This document shows positions 1 to 34,102 of a DNA stretch of 34,102 nucleotides, piece by piece (the stretch's first letter is position 1; the number at the start of each line of letters is the position of its first letter). The position numbers and the translations under genes were made by a program. The DNA comes from a virus. Taxonomy: Duplodnaviria; Heunggongvirae; Uroviricota; Caudoviricetes. The stretch lies in IMG/VR virus record IMGVR_UViG_2778261316_000008; one strand, written 5' to 3'. The notes under the pieces were generated by a model. The model had not been told where the DNA came from. It worked only from the letters and a program-made list of their open reading frames with translations, and made no database searches.

Positions 1-330
1 TCAGTAACCAAACAACGCCCATTTTAGTAGTGCATCTGCATCATTCTTCAAACTTCCAAGGTCTTTTCCTGGTGAAATTGTTGCCGCTACACCAAGCGCA
101 TTAAGTCGAAGCTGTGCCTGATGGAATCGACTCTCTTGCTGTAGGCCCAGAATTTCATTTTTATTCGCGACAGCATAACGCTGAATGGCTGACTTCGATA
201 CGCTGTAACCTTTATCGGCTAACCAGAGCGAGAGCCATTCATAACTGGTGAAGTTTGTGCGCGATAATTCGCTATGAAGCTCGGCACGAACATCCTCTGG
301 CAGTTTATCAATATTGCTTGGTCTGGCCAT
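1..330 (-). CDS. DUF3486-like protein (short paralogue of the gp27-like ORF at 12611-13156)
   Basis: ATG at 330 preceded by AGGAGG; N-terminal ~55 aa (MARxSxIxKLPEDVR...GYxxSKSAIxRY) clearly alignable with the 181-aa ORF at 12611; stop codon at bases 1-3. Confidence 0.6.
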   Translation of the reverse strand: MARPSNIDKLPEDVRAELHSELSRTNFTSYEWLSLWLADKGYSVSKSAIQRYAVANKNEILGLQQESRFHQAQLRLNALGVAATISPGKDLGSLKNDADALLKWALFGY

Positions 331-4896: not shown

Positions 4897-6666
4897 TCAG
4901 TTACCGTTAACGATGCTGATAACGCTGTTGCGGGCCGGAGTGGTCAGGGTAACCATCACCTCATCCAGCGCGGCTTCAGGTACGCCATCCGGGTACTGCG
5001 CCGTTAACTGGCGGTAATGTTCCGGCGTCCAGATATGGCCGTTAGCGCCAAACTTCTCGCGCAGGGCTTTCGCCGCCTCCACATGGGTCAGCGGACGCTG
5101 CTCAATACGCGGCCCGCGCACGTCTGAAGCCTGACCGCGCTTCGGCATATAGGCCGGAAGCGTGGTGTCGTCGATATGTTTGTACGGGTCAAGTCGCCCG
5201 CCGAACGGCAGCGCCTTCGCCTTGCGTGCAGCAGCTGCATCGGTGGCGTTATCGGTGCCCGTAACCAGCTCTTCGATTTCTTTTGCCGCCGTCTGCGCCG
5301 GGGTCTCCGGCAGGGCTTTGTAGTTTTCGCCAAATACCGCCGCGCTTTCGGCAAAGCCGAACTCGTTCTTTCTGACCTCCTCGACCAGGAAGAACGTCTC
5401 GTGACCGTCCTCACCGGTCAGCACCACCTGCGCCACATCGCTGCGCCACGGGTTACGGGTAATCATCAGTTTTTCGCCGACCAGTACGCCCGGTACCGTC
5501 GAAACGTCAAACTCATTGCCCCGGAACGAGACGCGCAGTTTTGGTGTGACCTTACGGAGTTCCGGTGCGGCCACCGCCAGTTCGCGGCAAACCTCAACGG
5601 ATGGCGCTTTTTTCAGCTGGTCAGCAGTAATCTTCAGCCAGATATCCGTGCGGGTTTTACCGTGGCGGCTGTGGACCGCCGTGGCGTTAAAGTGGCTGCG
5701 CCATTTCACCGCCAGTGCGTTCAGTTCGTCCAGGCTATGAACCGGCTGGAATTTGAGACCCGGCTCCAGTTTACGTTCGATAATGTCACGGGCCTTTTCC
5801 ACCTGCCCGGTGGCGCGGGCGTTATGCGGCTTGTGCGCTATCAGATTGATGCCCAGCGAGCGGCACATGTTTTTCGTCATGCCAGCGGTGTTCGCCGAAC
5901 CGGGATCAAGGTAGAGTATTTTCGGCACGCCGTGCAGCACGTCCGCGCCGCCGCGCTCCTGCATGGCGTTGATAAGCACAGAACAGAGGTTCTCACCAGA
6001 TTCCGCACCCATCACGTACTCAACGTAAATCCAGCCGCTGGTATGGTCGGTAATCTCGTAACTCCACACGCGGTCACTGGCGATGCGGGCGATGTTGGCA
6101 GGCTTGTTCTTGTAGAACTTCGAGCTGTCCATCACCTGCAACCCTTTATGGCCGTTGCTCAGGTAGTAAAGCGTACAAAGTGAGGCATCAATCTCCCAGA
6201 CGTGATTGGGATGCAGGCTGGCCATCTCGGACGACGGGGCCGGTGCGTCAAGCTGTTCCGGGTGCAGACCATAGTTCCGCAGGGCGCGGCTGATGGTGTC
6301 CTCGGACAGCGGGAAAAACTCGCCTGTGGCCTCGTCCGTTCTGCCAGCAGTGATAAAGCCGTTTGACCGCAGGGTCTCCACCGCATCCGCGATGGAATAC
6401 AGGCGCTTACCGTTCTTACGGGTGGCCTCGCGCAGCGTGGCAGATATCAGCGCGGCTTCGTCGCGGCTCAGGGCACTGCGCCCGGCATCGGCGCGTTTTT
6501 TACGTTTGTCAGTCACTGATACCTCCTTCAGCTTGCGCAGCAGGGTGGCGCGGGAAATGCCCAGTTCGGCGCAGGCGGCATCATATATCGCACCACGCTT
6601 ACCATGCCCCGCGTCACGTGCCGCGCGGGCAACATAAACCAGTCGTTCAGTCAGGGCGGCACTCAT
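4897..6666 (-). CDS. DDE transposase (Mu A-like / rve integrase core)
   Basis: 589 aa; N-terminal HTH, integrase-core-like region (HPNHVWEIDAS...LYLDPGSANTA...) and C-terminal Mu-transposase-like region; RBS AGGAGG before ATG at 6666. Confidence 0.85.
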   Translation of the reverse strand: MSAALTERLVYVARAARDAGHGKRGAIYDAACAELGISRATLLRKLKEVSVTDKRKKRADAGRSALSRDEAALISATLREATRKNGKRLYSIADAVETLRSNGFITAGRTDEATGEFFPLSEDTISRALRNYGLHPEQLDAPAPSSEMASLHPNHVWEIDASLCTLYYLSNGHKGLQVMDSSKFYKNKPANIARIASDRVWSYEITDHTSGWIYVEYVMGAESGENLCSVLINAMQERGGADVLHGVPKILYLDPGSANTAGMTKNMCRSLGINLIAHKPHNARATGQVEKARDIIERKLEPGLKFQPVHSLDELNALAVKWRSHFNATAVHSRHGKTRTDIWLKITADQLKKAPSVEVCRELAVAAPELRKVTPKLRVSFRGNEFDVSTVPGVLVGEKLMITRNPWRSDVAQVVLTGEDGHETFFLVEEVRKNEFGFAESAAVFGENYKALPETPAQTAAKEIEELVTGTDNATDAAAARKAKALPFGGRLDPYKHIDDTTLPAYMPKRGQASDVRGPRIEQRPLTHVEAAKALREKFGANGHIWTPEHYRQLTAQYPDGVPEAALDEVMVTLTTPARNSVISIVNGN

Positions 6667-29707: not shown

Positions 29708-30801
29708 CAGAACCCGATTTTATTGAACGCGATGCCGACAAAATCACGGCTGAAATGATTGCTCAGTACGAAGCCGCAACCGGCAAGACGCTGTACCCCG
29801 CCCAGGCTGAGCGCCTGTTGATTGACCTGTGGGCATACCGCGAAATGCTGGTCAGGGTAGCGGCGCAGGAAGCGGCCAAACAGAATCTGGTCGCCTTTGC
29901 CCGTGAGCCGATGATTGATTACCTCGGTGAACTGGTCGGTGTTTACCGCCTTGCCGCGCAGCCTGCCACCACCACTCTCCAGTTCTCCGTGGATGAGGCA
30001 CTGGCCATTGATGTGCTGATTCCGGCAGGCACCCGCGTCAGCGCTTCCGACAGCATTATTTTTGCCACCGATACGGACGTGGTGCTGAAAGCCGGATTGC
30101 TTCTGGTCAATGCCACGGCCACCTGTACCGAACCGGGAGCCGCTGGCAATGGCTGGCAACCTGCGCAGGTCAGTCAGTTGCTCGATGAGATTGATAACGT
30201 CGACCTGCAGGTGACCAATCTGATGGCAAGTTCTGGCGGTTCAGAGCAGGAAGACAATGACAGGCTCCGCGAGCGTATCAAACTGGCCCCGGAGTCATTC
30301 ACCAACGCCGGAAGCCGTATGGCATACCGCTTTCATGCCATGCAGGCCCATCCCAACATCGTCGACGTCGCTGTGCTCTCCCCGGTTCCCGGCACCGTAG
30401 AACTGTATCCGCTGCTCAGTACCGGCCTGCCGGAGGACAGCATCCTTACGCTGGTAGAGAGTTTCTGCTTGGACGAAAAAGTCAGGCCGCTCACTGACAC
30501 CGTGCGGGCTAAAACACCTGTGCAGGTGGATTACGCCATTGAAGCCAACATCACTATCTATCGTGATCAGGATGCCAACTCGATAAAGGACAACGCCAAC
30601 AGCGCCATACAGAACTGGGTGGCGTCCCGTACCGCCACGCTGGGGCGCGATATTGTCCCCAGTCAGATTATCAGCGTGCTGTCCGTTGCCGGAGTGTATC
30701 AGGTCGAACTGGTGACACCAGTGCTGAAGGTAGTGGCAGAAAACGAATGGGCAAACTGTACGGCGATCACTCTTAACATGACCGGGGTGTCCGATGGCTG
30801 A
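29698..30801 (+). CDS. baseplate J-like protein
   Basis: 367 aa following GPW-like gene with overlap. Confidence 0.8.
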   Translation: MVLTEPDFIERDADKITAEMIAQYEAATGKTLYPAQAERLLIDLWAYREMLVRVAAQEAAKQNLVAFAREPMIDYLGELVGVYRLAAQPATTTLQFSVDEALAIDVLIPAGTRVSASDSIIFATDTDVVLKAGLLLVNATATCTEPGAAGNGWQPAQVSQLLDEIDNVDLQVTNLMASSGGSEQEDNDRLRERIKLAPESFTNAGSRMAYRFHAMQAHPNIVDVAVLSPVPGTVELYPLLSTGLPEDSILTLVESFCLDEKVRPLTDTVRAKTPVQVDYAIEANITIYRDQDANSIKDNANSAIQNWVASRTATLGRDIVPSQIISVLSVAGVYQVELVTPVLKVVAENEWANCTAITLNMTGVSDG

Positions 30802-31372
30802 GCCGCTACAACTCCCGCCACCGCTTGAGGGTGATATCAGTCTCAGAACGCTGGGAAGACTCGCCGGGCGGCTGGATAACATCGACCTGAGCGTACTGAT
30901 GGTCTATCTCGTCGATATTGTCGACAGTTCCGCGCTGCCATGGCTGGGCGAGCAGTTCTCACTGTTCGGCGATGGCTGGGAGCTGGCGGAATCTGACGAT
31001 GTACGCCGCATGCTTATCAAATCCGCTATCGAGCTGCACCGCTACAAAGGGACGCCGTGGTCAATCAGGGAAATTATCCGCCGTTTCGGCTTCGGCGAAG
31101 TGGATCTGATTGAAGGCACTGGCCAGATTGGCTACGACGGCAAACACACTTACAACGGGCTTTTCGTTCATGGCGATGCGGAAGCCTGGGCGGTATATCG
31201 CGTCATCCTTCAACAGCCCATCACTAACGATCAGGCGGCGCTGTTACGCCAGACGCTCGCTGCTTTTGCTCCGGCCCGCTGCCATCTGGCAAGCCTGGAG
31301 TATCAGTCTGTCGCCATTCGCTACAACAACACCGTCAACTATGACGGCAGCTATAACCACGGGAGCAGTTAA
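30794..31372 (+). CDS. tail protein (P2 gpI-like / Mu gp48-like)
   Basis: 192 aa, position between baseplate J and tail fibre. Confidence 0.65.
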   Translation: MAEPLQLPPPLEGDISLRTLGRLAGRLDNIDLSVLMVYLVDIVDSSALPWLGEQFSLFGDGWELAESDDVRRMLIKSAIELHRYKGTPWSIREIIRRFGFGEVDLIEGTGQIGYDGKHTYNGLFVHGDAEAWAVYRVILQQPITNDQAALLRQTLAAFAPARCHLASLEYQSVAIRYNNTVNYDGSYNHGSS

Positions 31373-31374
31373 TT

Positions 31375-32208
31375 ATGGCAAACCTACCTGAAACCCCGCA
31401 GTGGGAAGAAGGCATCTACCAGATTGAGGTCTCTGACCCCGTTCTGGGTGGGCCTGACGGAATCTCTAACCGTCAGGGTAAACAACTGGCCAGCCGCACG
31501 CTGTACCTGAAGCAACAGGTTGAAAAAGGCGGTTCTGAACTTGCGAAACACATCGCGGCAGCAGACCCGCATACCCAGTACGCACCGAAAGCCAGCCCGA
31601 CATTCACCGGCACGCCAACAGCGCCTACGCCTGCAAATAGTGATAACAGCAAGAAGCTGGCGACGACAGAGTTTGTGGCCAAAGCACTTGCGGCGCTTGC
31701 TGGCAGCGCTCCTGAGACGCTGGATACGCTCAAAGAGCTGGCTGATGCCCTCGGCAACGATCCGAATTTTGCGACCACGGTGTTGAACAAGCTGGCGGAA
31801 AAGCTGGCCAAAGACCAGCACGGCGCAGATATTCCTGACCCGGCGCTCTTTGTCAAAAACCTTGGTTTGGGAGAATCGAAGTATGTAATTAAACGGGGAA
31901 CAAATGCTAATGGCGCCTGGATTATCTGGTCAGATGGAGCAGTCGAAGTTTTTGGTTCTGCCGTAACAATTGTTGATGGACTTGCGACAGTAACGTTTCC
32001 AGTGCAGCTTCCTGCTGTGACGAGAAATATTTCTATTGCAGAACGCATATCGCAAGACCCTGGAGTATCACCAGCATCAAACCCGATGCACGTATCAATA
32101 GTAATTGATAACACCGTCACTACGACTGGCTTTAAGGCCCGTTGTGTTATGGCGTCGGGCATGGCTTCATCGAATGGTTTTTCCTGGAGGGTATATGCGC
32201 CTGTTTAA
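31375..32208 (+). CDS. tail fibre protein S (constant N-terminus + variable C-terminus, current orientation)
   Basis: 277 aa; gix-like crossover site lies inside codons for KNLGLG (aa ~160); C-terminal ~115 aa encoded in AT-richer invertible DNA. Confidence 0.75.
   Translation: MANLPETPQWEEGIYQIEVSDPVLGGPDGISNRQGKQLASRTLYLKQQVEKGGSELAKHIAAADPHTQYAPKASPTFTGTPTAPTPANSDNSKKLATTEFVAKALAALAGSAPETLDTLKELADALGNDPNFATTVLNKLAEKLAKDQHGADIPDPALFVKNLGLGESKYVIKRGTNANGAWIIWSDGAVEVFGSAVTIVDGLATVTFPVQLPAVTRNISIAERISQDPGVSPASNPMHVSIVIDNTVTTTGFKARCVMASGMASSNGFSWRVYAPV
31853..31870. repeat. hix/gix-like recombination site (left inverted repeat)
   Basis: TCAAAAACCTTGGTTTGG; 14-bp core AAAAACCTTGGTTT is the perfect reverse complement of 33441-33454. 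Confidence 0.7.
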
Positions 32209-32380
32209 TCCGAAAATGTTAACTGAGGTTATTCCTGGATTTCATGACACCACTGATGCAATTGAATTGCCGGATGACAACTGGTTTTTCACAACAACTG
32301 AAATACCTGAAGGGAAAATACTCGCCGCAAATGAACGCGGCGAGCCCGTTCTGATTGATATTACTGTCCCGGAGGAGTAG
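32195..32380 (+). CDS. small ORF downstream of S (possible short or truncated tail fibre assembly protein)
   Basis: 61 aa from ATG 32195 with GGAGGG RBS, 14-nt overlap with S; no clear Tfa C-terminal domain. Confidence 0.35.
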   Translation: MRLFNPKMLTEVIPGFHDTTDAIELPDDNWFFTTTEIPEGKILAANERGEPVLIDITVPEE

Positions 32381-32957
32381 GCCAAATAATAACCGGTGCG
32401 CTGGCGGTGTCAACGCCCTCCAGCGCATCCAGATAATCAAGCCAGGCATTATATTGTTCTTTTTCTGCGTCCTTCAGGCGACCCATTGCTGCTTTACCAG
32501 GCCATTGCTTACCATTCATAAAGTCATTGGCCTGGCTAATCAGCGCCTGTAGTTTTGTTGCCGCCACAGAAATATCATATGCGCGCTGAGCTTCGGGATC
32601 GGCAACCCATTTATTACCATCCCATTTATCAAACTTTGTAGTTGGTGCTTCAAAAGTAAAGCCTTCACGCAACGGTCCAATATATTCGATAGTCACCGGC
32701 TTCCCGTTACTGGTGGTGTATGCTGTTTCTCCACGATGGTCTTCTTTAAGCACCCACTCAGATCCAGAAAAAATAAATACCTTCCCTCCTGCTTCGGCCC
32801 CTGGTTCTATCGCCGTAGAGCATCCGGGCATACTGACACCGATGTTAATAAACTCGTCAGACCATCCCATATATTCAGAAGTCACAGCGTCGTAGTAATA
32901 ACAGCGGATTTCACCCGGTTCTGTTGCCAGTCCGTTTACATCGAAAACAGGTTTCAT
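32361..32957 (-). CDS. tail fibre assembly protein (Tfa/U'-like)
   Basis: 198 aa; EDHRGETAY...GPLREGFT...KWDGNKWVADPEA matches conserved Tfa region. Confidence 0.75.
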   Translation of the reverse strand: MKPVFDVNGLATEPGEIRCYYYDAVTSEYMGWSDEFINIGVSMPGCSTAIEPGAEAGGKVFIFSGSEWVLKEDHRGETAYTTSNGKPVTIEYIGPLREGFTFEAPTTKFDKWDGNKWVADPEAQRAYDISVAATKLQALISQANDFMNGKQWPGKAAMGRLKDAEKEQYNAWLDYLDALEGVDTASAPVIIWPTPPGQ

Positions 32958-33472
32958 TATTTAGCCCTTACAAGAAAGTTGAATGCAATATTTCTTGGGC
33001 GGCTTTCCGTGGATGTTCTGGCAACCCTCGATAAATCAAAATTGAATGTAGAAGTTGATACGGTTCCGCCTGGTGCCGGGGGGGCCAGATTGCCCTGAAC
33101 AACGCTGCGAGAAAATACCCCCAACGCATCTGTATTTACCCCTGTATAAAGATCAACGAGATAACCAGTAACATTCTGAATGGCGTCTCCCTGCGGTGAA
33201 AGCAGGGTTCGCCCATTATCTATCCCACGTCCATCATCCCAGACACGCAGAAACTCTCCTCGCAGATCTGGCAATTTCAGGCCCGGCCAAACAAGGGCCA
33301 ATTTTGGGTAAGTGGTAGGGGAAAATGTTGAGTCGTTAAACTTAAGGAACACCATGTCGGCCCATTCCGGCATCACGGTATTTGGCATGGCAGAAGACGG
33401 CCAAAAAAATGGAACTCCTATCGGTGGTGCACCTGCTCCTAAACCAAGGTTTTTGGAAAAGCAGTTACACAT
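32957..33472 (-). CDS. alternative tail fibre C-terminal segment (S'v)
   Basis: Begins ...FSKNLGLG at the right gix-like site (same KNLGLG as in S); C-terminus ...TESRPRNIAFNFLVRAK matches P2 H / Mu S-type fibre tips. Confidence 0.7.
   Translation of the reverse strand: MCNCFSKNLGLGAGAPPIGVPFFWPSSAMPNTVMPEWADMVFLKFNDSTFSPTTYPKLALVWPGLKLPDLRGEFLRVWDDGRGIDNGRTLLSPQGDAIQNVTGYLVDLYTGVNTDALGVFSRSVVQGNLAPPAPGGTVSTSTFNFDLSRVARTSTESRPRNIAFNFLVRAK
33439..33456. repeat. hix/gix-like recombination site (right inverted repeat)
   Basis: CTAAACCAAGGTTTTTGG; core AAACCAAGGTTTTTG is identical to the core of hixL as I recall it (TTCTTGAAAACCAAGGTTTTTGATAA). Confidence 0.7.
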
Positions 33473-33520
33473 AGAGAAATCTGCAAAAATCCTCCCACTA
33501 TGATGTGAAGGAGGAAATTG

Positions 33521-34102
33521 ATGGCCGTTATTGGTTATATCCGCGTATCAACAATCGACCAGAACAGCGATTTGCAGCGTAATGCACTCACAAGCGCAAA
33601 CTGTGACCGCATTTTTGAAGACCGTATGAGTGGAAAAGTTGCCAGTCGCCCTGGTCTTAAAGGCGCTTTAAAGTGCATTAATAGCGGAGACACCCTGGTA
33701 GTGTGGAAACTGGACAGGCTGGGACGTAGCGTTAAGAACCTGATTGCACTCATATCAGAGTTACATGAACGTGGTGCCCACTTCCGCTCTTTAACAGACA
33801 GTATTGATACCAGCACTGCCATGGGGCGCTTCTTTTTCCATGTAATGTCGGCATTGGCGGAGATGGAGCGCGAGCTAATTGTCGAACGGACACTGGCCGG
33901 GCTGGCAGCAGCCAGAGCACAGGGACGCGTAGGTGGAAGGCCCAACGCATTAAAAACCCATGAGCGAGAGCAGATTGGGCGGCTATTGACGAAGGGGCAC
34001 ACCCGCCAGCAGCTGGCAATTATCTACGGTGTAGGGTTATCGACGCTTTACCGATACTTTCCGGTGGATGGTCATAGGAAGGATAACGCAGCAGGAATGT
34101 AA
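33521..34102 (+). CDS. gin: Gin/Hin/Pin-family serine DNA invertase
   Basis: 193 aa; GYIRVSTIDQN with catalytic Ser, VWKLDRLGRS, C-terminal HTH (GRPNALKTHEREQIGRLL...LSTLYRY); GGAGGA RBS; stop is the last codon of the window. Confidence 0.9.
   Translation: MAVIGYIRVSTIDQNSDLQRNALTSANCDRIFEDRMSGKVASRPGLKGALKCINSGDTLVVWKLDRLGRSVKNLIALISELHERGAHFRSLTDSIDTSTAMGRFFFHVMSALAEMERELIVERTLAGLAAARAQGRVGGRPNALKTHEREQIGRLLTKGHTRQQLAIIYGVGLSTLYRYFPVDGHRKDNAAGM

Follow-up and report, generated by a model that had tools for sequence, protein, structure and literature searches.

The mechanism of invertible DNA switches has been textbook material since Mu, P1, e14 and Hin. In the G segment of phage Mu, which is inverted by Gin at gix sites, a constant fibre part (Sc) runs into a crossover site within the fibre gene, and the two variable tips with their partner genes, Sv-U and U'-Sv', are placed back to back inside a segment of about 3 kb. 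The P segment of e14 in E. coli K-12 (Pin, pix) carries stfP-tfaP and tfaE-stfE back to back in a cassette of 1.8 kb; e14 itself, which has two full-length Tfa proteins as chaperones, is lambdoid and defective, and stfE is a pseudogene according to its annotation. In Salmonella, Hin acts at hix sites to flip a promoter of flagellin genes rather than a coding cassette, and hin sits inside its invertible segment. Cassettes of this kind are also found in P2-like E. coli prophages (L015 and phage S164, for example), where an Sv and a short ORF of 65 aa are followed by tfa, Sv' and the recombinase gene, and where the crossover site encodes LGLGE.

The window analysed here, the whole 34,102-nt stretch of virus record IMGVR_UViG_2778261316_000008, contains a region that we read, with a probability of about 0.88, as a Din-type inversion switch controlling the C-terminal receptor-binding fibre tip of a BcepMu-like transposable prophage (Table 1). 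The layout is that of the Mu G segment, with the invertase gene immediately outside the right site and an enhancer (here a candidate) in its 5´ end. Both systems are carried by transposable phages, and the Sc/Sv junctions correspond, with fibre residues 137-168 aligning to residues 144-175 of Mu S at the boundary of the G segment. Compared with Mu, the segment is shorter (1.58 kb), the tips, of 111 and 159 aa, are very much smaller, the crossover sites have AA at their centre instead of the GA of gix, and just 18-19 of the 26 site positions match gix. In addition, com/mom genes are absent, no gene follows that of the invertase before the prophage ends about 75-80 bp further on, and the BcepMu-like backbone has its early genes on the opposite strand. 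The cassette size and the crossover sites are closer to those of e14, with which the interior half-site and the encoded LGLGE are identical, although here one of the two partner proteins has only 61 aa. The P2-like cassettes share the Sv type (about 66% nucleotide identity) and the short ORF that follows it, but they differ in having a Peduovirus backbone, a much longer Sc (in a 463-aa fibre) and a more Pin-like invertase.

Table 1. Positions of the elements of the putative fibre switch in the window.
Feature	Position	Strand	Basis or remark
Sc, constant N-terminal fibre part, codons 1-166 ending KNLGLG	31375..31872	+	phrog_3100 tail fibre, E 5e-65
Left 26-bp crossover site, TTGTCAAAAACC TT GGTTTGGGAGAA	31850..31875	.	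core 31854-31868, central dinucleotide 31862-31863
Sv, tip in present orientation, 111 aa + stop	31873..32208	+	gives 277-aa fibre
61-aa ORF, presumed Sv partner	32195..32380	+	14-nt overlap with end of S; phrog_5400 and phrog_188 matches
Terminator-like hairpin just downstream of U'	32320..32345	-	consensus scan: 10-bp stem, 7 G-C pairs, T-rich tail
U', canonical tail-fibre assembly protein, 198 aa, for alternative tip	32361..32957	-	Pfam Caudo_TAP, E 2e-25; phrog_105, E 9e-68
Sv', alternative tip, 159 aa + stop	32957..33436	-	phrog_523 and phrog_3100, E about 1e-50
Right 26-bp crossover site, TGCTCCTAAACC AA GGTTTTTGGAAA	33434..33459	.	core 33441-33455, central dinucleotide 33446-33447
DNA invertase, 193 aa, small serine recombinase, Hin/Gin/Cin/Pin subclass	33521..34102	+	Pfam Resolvase, E 4e-46; HTH_7, E 1e-13
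Candidate recombinational enhancer in 5´ end of invertase gene	33542..33613	.	two Fis-type cores, G-N13-C, A/T-rich centre

The initial annotation described an AT-richer segment of ~1.6 kb between inverted repeats with perfectly complementary 14-bp cores resembling hixL, and each part of this description stood up to closer analysis. A repeat search of the window returned inverted arms of 26 nt at 31848-31873 and 33436-33461 (88% complementary, 1562 nt apart), and GC content is 0.44-0.50 inside the segment, which measures ~1.58 kb between the sites, compared with 0.55-0.60 upstream. Scanning the window with the 14-mer AAACCAAGGTTTTT gave exactly two copies without mismatch, at 31855-31868 on the minus strand and 33441-33454 on the plus strand, while all other matches across the 34 kb had three mismatches, as expected at chance level. 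The perfect stretch is actually 15 nt long and unique in the window; of 500 first-order Markov shuffles of positions 30000-34102, 3 contained a perfect inverted repeat this long or longer whose arms were separated by 50 nt or more. As a comparison set we used the published Din-family crossover sites (PMC3241671, Table 3) and judged likeness by pairwise identity to them, the printed 'dix' consensus of the same paper being shorter than the sites. The 15-nt core equals positions 8-22 of hixL. Over the full 26 bp, identity of the left site is 23/26 to pixL and pixR and 22/26 to hixL; for the right site the values are 21/26 (pixR) and 20/26 (hixL). As in the Din subclass, the two sites are imperfect palindromes, are inverted and share an identical central dinucleotide, AA, in opposite orientation. 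The parental junctions read ...GGTTTGGGAGAATCG and CTCCTAAACC..., and the recombinant junctions would read ...GGTTTAGGAGCAGG and ATTCTCCCAAACC.... A shufflon with a third crossover site was ruled out, with only two sites lying within two mismatches of the core.

The left site falls within the fibre reading frame at KNLGLG, which forms residues 161-166 of the plus-strand ORF 31375-32208, and the same peptide forms residues 7-12 of the minus-strand ORF 32957-33472; both placements agree with the initial annotation, as does the exchange of the fibre C-terminus in frame that it had predicted. In-silico inversion fuses Sc, which lies outside the invertible segment, to Sv' in frame, such that a 325-aa fibre replaces the 277-aa fibre and the first 166 aa are common to the fibres of both orientations. 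This is the arrangement of the Mu G, P1 C and e14 P type, a constant N-terminus joined in frame to one of two C-termini encoded on opposite strands. The two tips are unrelated to each other. Sv', which is silent in the present orientation, resembles a short tail fibre (9cuy_c, E 5e-12) and the tip of T4 gp37 (2xgf, E 5e-7), and Sv has a dN/dS of 0.19 when compared with its P2-like homologue in L015.

Systems of this type place each tip next to its own Tfa/U gene, and here the two sides differ. U' is a canonical Caudo_TAP protein whose gene has 98.9% nucleotide identity to tfa of the lambdoid phages mEp213 and mEp043, whereas the neighbour of Sv is the 61-aa protein, weakly similar to the N-domains of short Tfa proteins (blastp, E 6e-4 and 3e-3) and without the conserved Tfa C-domain. 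Its profile matches are to positions 1-58 of the 145 of phrog_5400 (E 4e-16) and to the Tfa family phrog_188 (E 8e-5). A dN/dS of 0.09-0.13 marks a conserved gene under purifying selection, and the homologues are short in 87 of 87 cases (43-90 aa; all but one 56-90 aa). That the ORF is a freshly truncated Tfa pseudogene was rejected on these grounds, all homologues being short and dN/dS being about 0.1. An AF2 model of the protein reached a pLDDT of 92, and a search of the PDB for relatives of this predicted fold found none. Judged by these sequence relationships, the 61-aa protein is conserved and is not a canonical fibre-assembly protein. The initial annotation had called the module complete, which is slightly generous: every named element that was tested holds, but the 61-aa partner lacks the Tfa C-domain. 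All four cargo genes look functional by their family relationships and substitution patterns, with dN/dS of 0.1-0.2 for Sv and the 61-aa ORF and strong family matches for U' and Sv'. No NCBIfam equivalog was found for any of the five proteins.

The invertase gene starts 61 nt past the right 26-bp site, and the Pfam matches together with 64% identity to Gin, 62% to Cin and 63% to Pin confirm the initial assignment of a Gin-family invertase just outside that site. Residues 3-183 align to the Gin structures 4m6f and 3uj3 (E about 1e-77). Because the protein has one extra N-terminal residue relative to Gin, Hin numbering applies, and Ser10 aligns with Gin Ser9, the residue changed to Ala in 3uj3. 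The protein has the catalytic domain with the nucleophilic serine and the C-terminal HTH of the Din subclass. A catalytic-serine mutation, which the initial annotation had named as fatal to its reading, is absent, Ser10 being intact, and R8, R43, K47, K51, Q151, R154 and L155 are likewise retained. The last three are the Fis-contact residues, all at Hin-numbered positions; they are conserved in Hin, as are Ser10, K47 and K51. A consensus scan upstream of the gene gave no match to a sigma-70 promoter, a result that counts against the preferred reading.

The basic helix-B positions 47, 48 and 51 clamp the enhancer DNA. Residue 48 of the invertase is Gly (codon 33662-33664), and with K47 and K51 kept two of the three basic positions are present. 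A basic residue, Arg or Lys, occupies this position in Gin, Cin, Pin, KP12 and the related prophages L010 and L011, and Hin has Arg; in the Hin study, Lys or Arg was found there in 15 of 15 aligned invertases.

The initial annotation also suggested a search for an enhancer at the start of the invertase gene, and this search brought up two candidate Fis-type cores at 33545-33559 and 33594-33608 (gene positions +25..39 and +74..88). Both are codon-homologous to cores in the annotated enhancer of P1 cin (NC_005856, +19..+90), and both are conserved in five family alleles. Between the cores the sequence has the A/T-rich motifs ATTTG and TAATG, where Hin has ATTTA and TAATG. The centre of the first core lies about 105 bp from the centre of the right site, similar to the site-to-enhancer loop of about 100 bp in Hin. 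Synonymous depletion over the putative enhancer was not significant (5/24 versus 55/162 variable third positions, p = 0.25, five distinct alleles). Support for this candidate enhancer, at which Fis may act, is of two kinds, position and motif.

Comparison with relatives provides the strongest evidence for an inversion switch. Complete E. coli genomes that cover at least 80% of the region were not found, the flanks being shared at 99.7-99.8% identity with different interiors, and for this reason the flipped copy was located through a protein database. The predicted 325-aa flipped fibre is present there at 100% identity (P0001) and at 98-99% identity (P0002-P0004). The public assemblies L010 and L011 carry the same cassette in the opposite orientation, with the whole 1572-bp interior 99.7-99.8% identical, and their junctions are the exact reciprocal recombinants predicted for the two sites, colinearity breaking inside the core. 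A second cassette is found inverted between L017 and L021, at 96% identity, with the identical Gly48 invertase gene in both backbones. These comparisons show that both orientations occur in nature and place the crossover at the site centres, as in the Din subclass. Related elements in assemblies of the same strain or lineage, namely two AW1.7 assemblies and isolates 44 and 48 from one source, have matching orientations within each pair, which we consider uninformative rather than negative. Prophage fibre segments of this kind have been reported to flip constantly in E. coli cultures, in a study in which e14 inversion was measured (PMC4272514).

In the mechanism that we propose, invertase dimers would bind the two 26-bp sites, and a synapse would form between these sites and a Fis-bound enhancer situated within the initial ~90 bp of the invertase gene itself. 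Ser10 would cut both sites at the central AA/TT dinucleotide, half of the tetramer would rotate, and religation would leave 1584 bp inverted. Late transcription in the present orientation would yield Sc+Sv together with the 61-aa partner and, in the flipped orientation, Sc+Sv' together with the canonical assembly protein U'; in the latter case the hairpin downstream of U' would serve as terminator of the S'-U' transcript. As the two orientations would make either Sc+Sv or Sc+Sv', a lysogen population would release virions with two receptor specificities. Inversion by Din-type enzymes requires Fis and negatively supercoiled DNA; we infer that inversion here depends on Fis, that it takes place in this lysogen and that it alters host range.

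The same architecture could also belong to a lineage that is attenuated or locked, in which R48G weakens activation by Fis and the enhancer, the fibre is fixed as Sc+Sv, and the flips seen elsewhere stem from Arg48 alleles or from earlier events. Gly48 occurs in the window and in an allele of identical sequence that is widespread, L010 and L011 have this very cassette flipped and carry Arg48, and no flip was seen among same-strain assemblies with the Gly48 allele; moreover, Hin-R48A associates more weakly with the enhancer, destabilising the enhancer complex, and shows less Fis-activated inversion. Single helix-B substitutions in Hin, however, cause only a moderate loss of rate (reportedly about threefold for residues 47 and 51), and L017 and L021 have their cassettes in opposite orientations despite sharing the Gly48 gene. 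The perfect 15-bp core is retained in the sites, and the silent Sv'-U' half has not decayed, being 99.6-100% identical to expressed copies. We consider an attenuated or locked lineage improbable.

It is harder still to credit that the opposite orientations in relatives arose without the invertase, by cassette replacement or by recombination of a general or illegitimate kind that brought in the segment either way round, and that the repeats are simply a conserved coding motif (KNLGLG) at module boundaries. Such a view gains something from the half-cassette mosaics in L004 and L005 and from the comparison of the window with L010 and L011, in which the cassette is 99.6-100% identical while the flanks are 93% (left) and 78-85% (right) identical; conservation so much higher than in the flanks shows that the cassette has moved horizontally as one unit. 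The repeats, however, are only 26 bp long and, towards the invertase gene, continue past the coding motif into non-coding sequence; in a position-wise comparison they match recombinase-binding sites, the central AA included. A dedicated invertase is found next to the segment in every case, the flipped copies have junctions that are precisely the reciprocal products of recombination between the two sites, and experiments have established this same mechanism for Mu, P1 and e14. Recombination without the invertase seems to us very improbable, and inversion by the invertase remains the reading that we prefer.

Because this mechanism is textbook, confirmation of the switch opens no new question. 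On the preferred reading, one gene has two states, represented by the 277-aa fibre and by the minus-strand ORF (32957-33472) that is silent here. This matters mainly for annotation, and both fibre states should enter into predictions of prophages and host range for the E. coli transposable prophages of this widespread family. Specialists in phage engineering and serine recombinases may find interest in Gly48 as a naturally occurring helix-B variant, in the 61-aa partner and in the cassette exchange bounded by crossover sites.

With regard to this exchange, we advance only tentatively, and as a rather doubtful proposal, that the crossover sites may also serve as cassette-exchange junctions, co-resident BcepMu-like, P2-like and lambdoid prophages swapping whole receptor-binding cassettes through invertase-catalysed intermolecular double crossovers, and that one cassette type may pair the 111-aa tip with an unannotated 61-aa family that replaces the two-domain Tfa chaperone. 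Diverged backbones have exchanged the cassette, and the breakpoints of this exchange lie at the crossover sites; the backbones that share the 99.6-100% identical segment diverge by 7-20% immediately outside them.

A repeat search of the window revealed inverted-repeat arms at 31848-31873 and 33436-33461 (26 nt, 88% complementary). The perfect 14-bp cores reported in the initial annotation were borne out: within the 34-kb window, zero-mismatch copies of the 14-mer were found only at 31855-31868 (minus strand) and 33441-33454 (plus strand), with the remaining matches at 3 mismatches each, the level predicted by shuffles. The perfect match in fact covers 15 nt (31854-31868 and 33441-33455), and 3/500 Markov shuffles of the 4.1-kb region yielded a perfect inverted repeat of this length or more whose arms are separated. 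GC content drops from 0.55-0.60 upstream to 0.44-0.50 within the segment. We compared the sites, in a 12+2+12 layout, with the published Din-family recombination sites (PMC3241671 Table 3). The 15-nt core corresponds to hixL positions 8-22, so the match to the hixL core given in the initial annotation is correct. The left and right sites, whose centres are 1584 bp apart, both carry AA as central dinucleotide and are in mutually inverted orientation, a requirement of inversion.

Features of the fibre cassette and the adjoining invertase gene
Feature	Coordinates	Strand	Sequence	Remarks
Fibre ORF	31375-32208	plus		277 aa
Left site	31850-31875	reverse complement	TTCTCCCAAACC AA GGTTTTTGACAA	pixL, pixR 23/26; hixL 22/26
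61-aa ORF	32195-32380	plus		after the Sv tip
Terminator-like hairpin	32345-32320	minus		downstream of U'
U'	32361-32957	minus		canonical tail-fibre assembly gene after the Sv' tip; Caudo_TAP E 2e-25
Right site	33434-33459		TGCTCCTAAACC AA GGTTTTTGGAAA	pixR 21/26; hixL 20/26
Invertase ORF	33521-34102	plus		193 aa counted from an ATG preceded by GGAGGA
Candidate Fis-type core 1	33545-33559		GTATCAACAATCGAC	position codon-homologous to P1 cin enhancer
Candidate Fis-type core 2	33594-33608		GCGCAAACTGTGACC	position codon-homologous to P1 cin enhancer

The left site falls within the fibre ORF at the KNLGLG peptide, residues 161-166. When inversion was simulated by reverse-complementing the sequence between the cores, a 325-aa ORF resulted that has its first 166 residues (the constant part, Sc) in common with the 277-aa form and then continues into minus-strand sequence, as expected from the earlier proposal that the C-terminus is exchanged in frame at this peptide. 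Fibre residues 137-168 align with residues 144-175 of Mu S (PDB 5yvq, 8ju3), and the annotated boundary of the Mu G segment (~residue 169 of S) falls exactly in this region. Direct comparison of the two alternative tips, Sv (111 aa) and Sv' (159 aa), detected no similarity. The families matched by Sv' are those of tail fibres and tail collars (phrog_523, phrog_3100, E ~1e-50); among receptor-binding regions of solved structure, it matches a short tail fibre (9cuy_c, E 5e-12) and the T4 gp37 tip (2xgf, E 5e-7). The 171-aa ORF reported by gene callers is probably an artefact in which the silent Sv' frame runs on across the right site. The ATG at 33472 opening this minus-strand ORF (MCNCFS, then KNLGLG...; 33455-33472, minus strand) sits outside the segment and lacks a well-spaced Shine-Dalgarno sequence.

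Both arrangements were detected among relatives. The hypothetical Sc+Sv' hybrid, which is non-contiguous in the window, was searched against a collection of 5.8 billion proteins and matched a 325-aa fibre protein at 100% identity (P0001) plus three variants at 98-99% (P0002-P0004). In two public assemblies, L010 and L011, the complete 1572-bp interior is inverted relative to the window (99.7-99.8% identity). Colinearity ends within the core, and the junctions (...AAAACCTTGGTTT joined to AGGAGCAGG, and ATTCTCCC joined to AAACCAAGG...) are precisely those that reciprocal recombination between the two sites of the window would give. The window's own arrangement is 100% identical in L007 and L008, at two different chromosomal loci. 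L004-L006 carry the Sv'-U' half in flipped orientation and joined to Sc, but their second half is a different one. Another cassette, 96% identical in the two, is inverted between L017 and L021, whose backbones carry an invertase gene identical to that of the window. Two same-strain assembly pairs each showed the same orientation within the pair, an outcome expected for consensus assemblies and uninformative about flipping. Collectively, the comparative data show inversion at exactly these sites.

The cassette has also passed between backbones. Compared over window positions 31820-33475, it is 99.6-100% identical to those of L010 and L011. Outside the left site, identity has fallen to 93% by 35 bp out, and outside the right site to 78-85% by ~20 bp out. 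A near-identical cassette with diverged flanks implies that diverged backbones have exchanged it whole, the crossover sites being the breakpoints. L004 and L005 have only 32605-33461 in common with the window cassette, which places a mosaic breakpoint inside U'. U' shares 98.9% identity with tfa of the lambdoid phages mEp213 and mEp043; this identity to their assembly and side-tail-fibre region covers 32369-32994, U' plus the last Sv' codons.

The gene beside the segment encodes a Gin-family invertase, as originally proposed, with Pfam Resolvase and HTH_7 domains, end-to-end alignment with Gin crystal structures (E ~1e-77) and 64%, 62% and 63% identity to Gin, Cin and Pin, respectively (sequences from reference records). 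Hin numbering is directly applicable, and R8, S10 and R43 are all present; a catalytic-serine mutation, which the initial annotation had named as contrary evidence, was looked for, and S10 is intact. Also present are Q151, R154 and L155, which contact Fis, and K47 and K51 of helix B. Residue 48, a helix-B position contacting the enhancer, is Gly (codon 33662-33664). Positions 47, 48 and 51 were always basic in 15 aligned invertases, with Lys or Arg at position 48, and Hin-R48A moderately lowered Fis-activated inversion and destabilised the enhancer complex (McLean et al.). The closest invertase alleles (KP12, L010, L011) have Arg48. Gly48 is the usual allele in E. coli BcepMu-like prophages and may represent a natural attenuation of the rate.

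The suggested search for a Fis enhancer at the 5´ end of the invertase gene turned up two candidate cores, both 15-mers fitting G-N13-C with an A/T-rich centre, at positions homologous to the cin enhancer (annotated at +19..+90 of cin in the P1 record). Five distinct family alleles show no variation in core 1 and a single variable position, not at the boundary, in core 2; synonymous-change depletion over the candidate enhancer was not significant among them. The motifs between the cores, ATTTG and TAATG, are much like the ATTTA and TAATG of Hin, and the centre of core 1 is ~105 bp from that of the right site, compared to a loop of ~100 bp for Hin. Homology and geometry thus support, without proving, a recombinational enhancer.

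By its structure, the system qualifies as a Din-type invertible fibre switch; the original observation holds and its interpretation is supported. Fis dependence, switching activity in this lysogen given Gly48, and a host-range phenotype are inferred. Such switches are thoroughly known.

The 61-aa ORF following Sv matches one 145-position profile over positions 1-58 only and, weakly, a Tfa family. In alignments with short Tfa proteins it covers their fibre-specific N-terminal domain and lacks the conserved C-terminal one. A fresh Tfa truncation was considered and rejected, as 87/87 database homologues, found across Enterobacterales and none annotated, are only 43-90 aa. P2-like prophages have the same Sv type followed by the same short ORF, dN/dS is 0.09-0.13, and the AF2 model is confident (pLDDT 92), though a PDB search found no structural relatives. 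The protein may act as a minimal partner of the fibre tip. A strong sigma-70-like match (32413-32386, minus strand; TTGACA, 16-nt spacer, TATTAT; 11/12) lies within the 3´ end of U' and points into the antisense of the 61-aa ORF, with the terminator-like hairpin within ~40 nt downstream; it would face the invertase gene after inversion. It may be due to chance.

The window's sequence is that of a BcepMu-like transposable prophage. It shares 97.9% identity over 25 kb with 'Klebsiella phage KP12 clone KP12_2', 96% with Escherichia phage Phi06_2974 B and 85% with PhiKM; DNA-level matches to BcepMu and phiE255 are limited to the sheath and tube genes. Relatives (L001, L002, L017, L019, L021 and L022) occupy different chromosomal sites, interrupting host genes (aldolase, hybA, arginine decarboxylase, ynfE and a poly-beta-1,6-N-acetyl-D-glucosamine export gene adjoining pgaB); the invertase gene comes last, at ~75-80 bp from the end of the prophage, without com/mom genes after it. 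The upstream order D-V-W-J-I-S is the Mu/P2-type baseplate order. The minus strand carries the early genes, among them a 589-aa ORF at 4897-6666, and the plus strand carries the late genes. Fibre segments of e14, Mu-like and P2-like elements flip constantly in E. coli cultures (PMC4272514), and fibre rearrangements were reported for ST131 isolates in a Bcepmuvirus-type prophage carrying an invertase (preprint, bioRxiv 10.1101/2022.05.07.487787). GenBank places the KP12_2 record (L003, OM835952.1) in Vequintavirinae. Its 35 kb, which include a transposase, show 97.9% identity to the window's Mu-like prophage, and the sequence probably stems from a co-purified or induced prophage rather than from a Vequintavirus genome.
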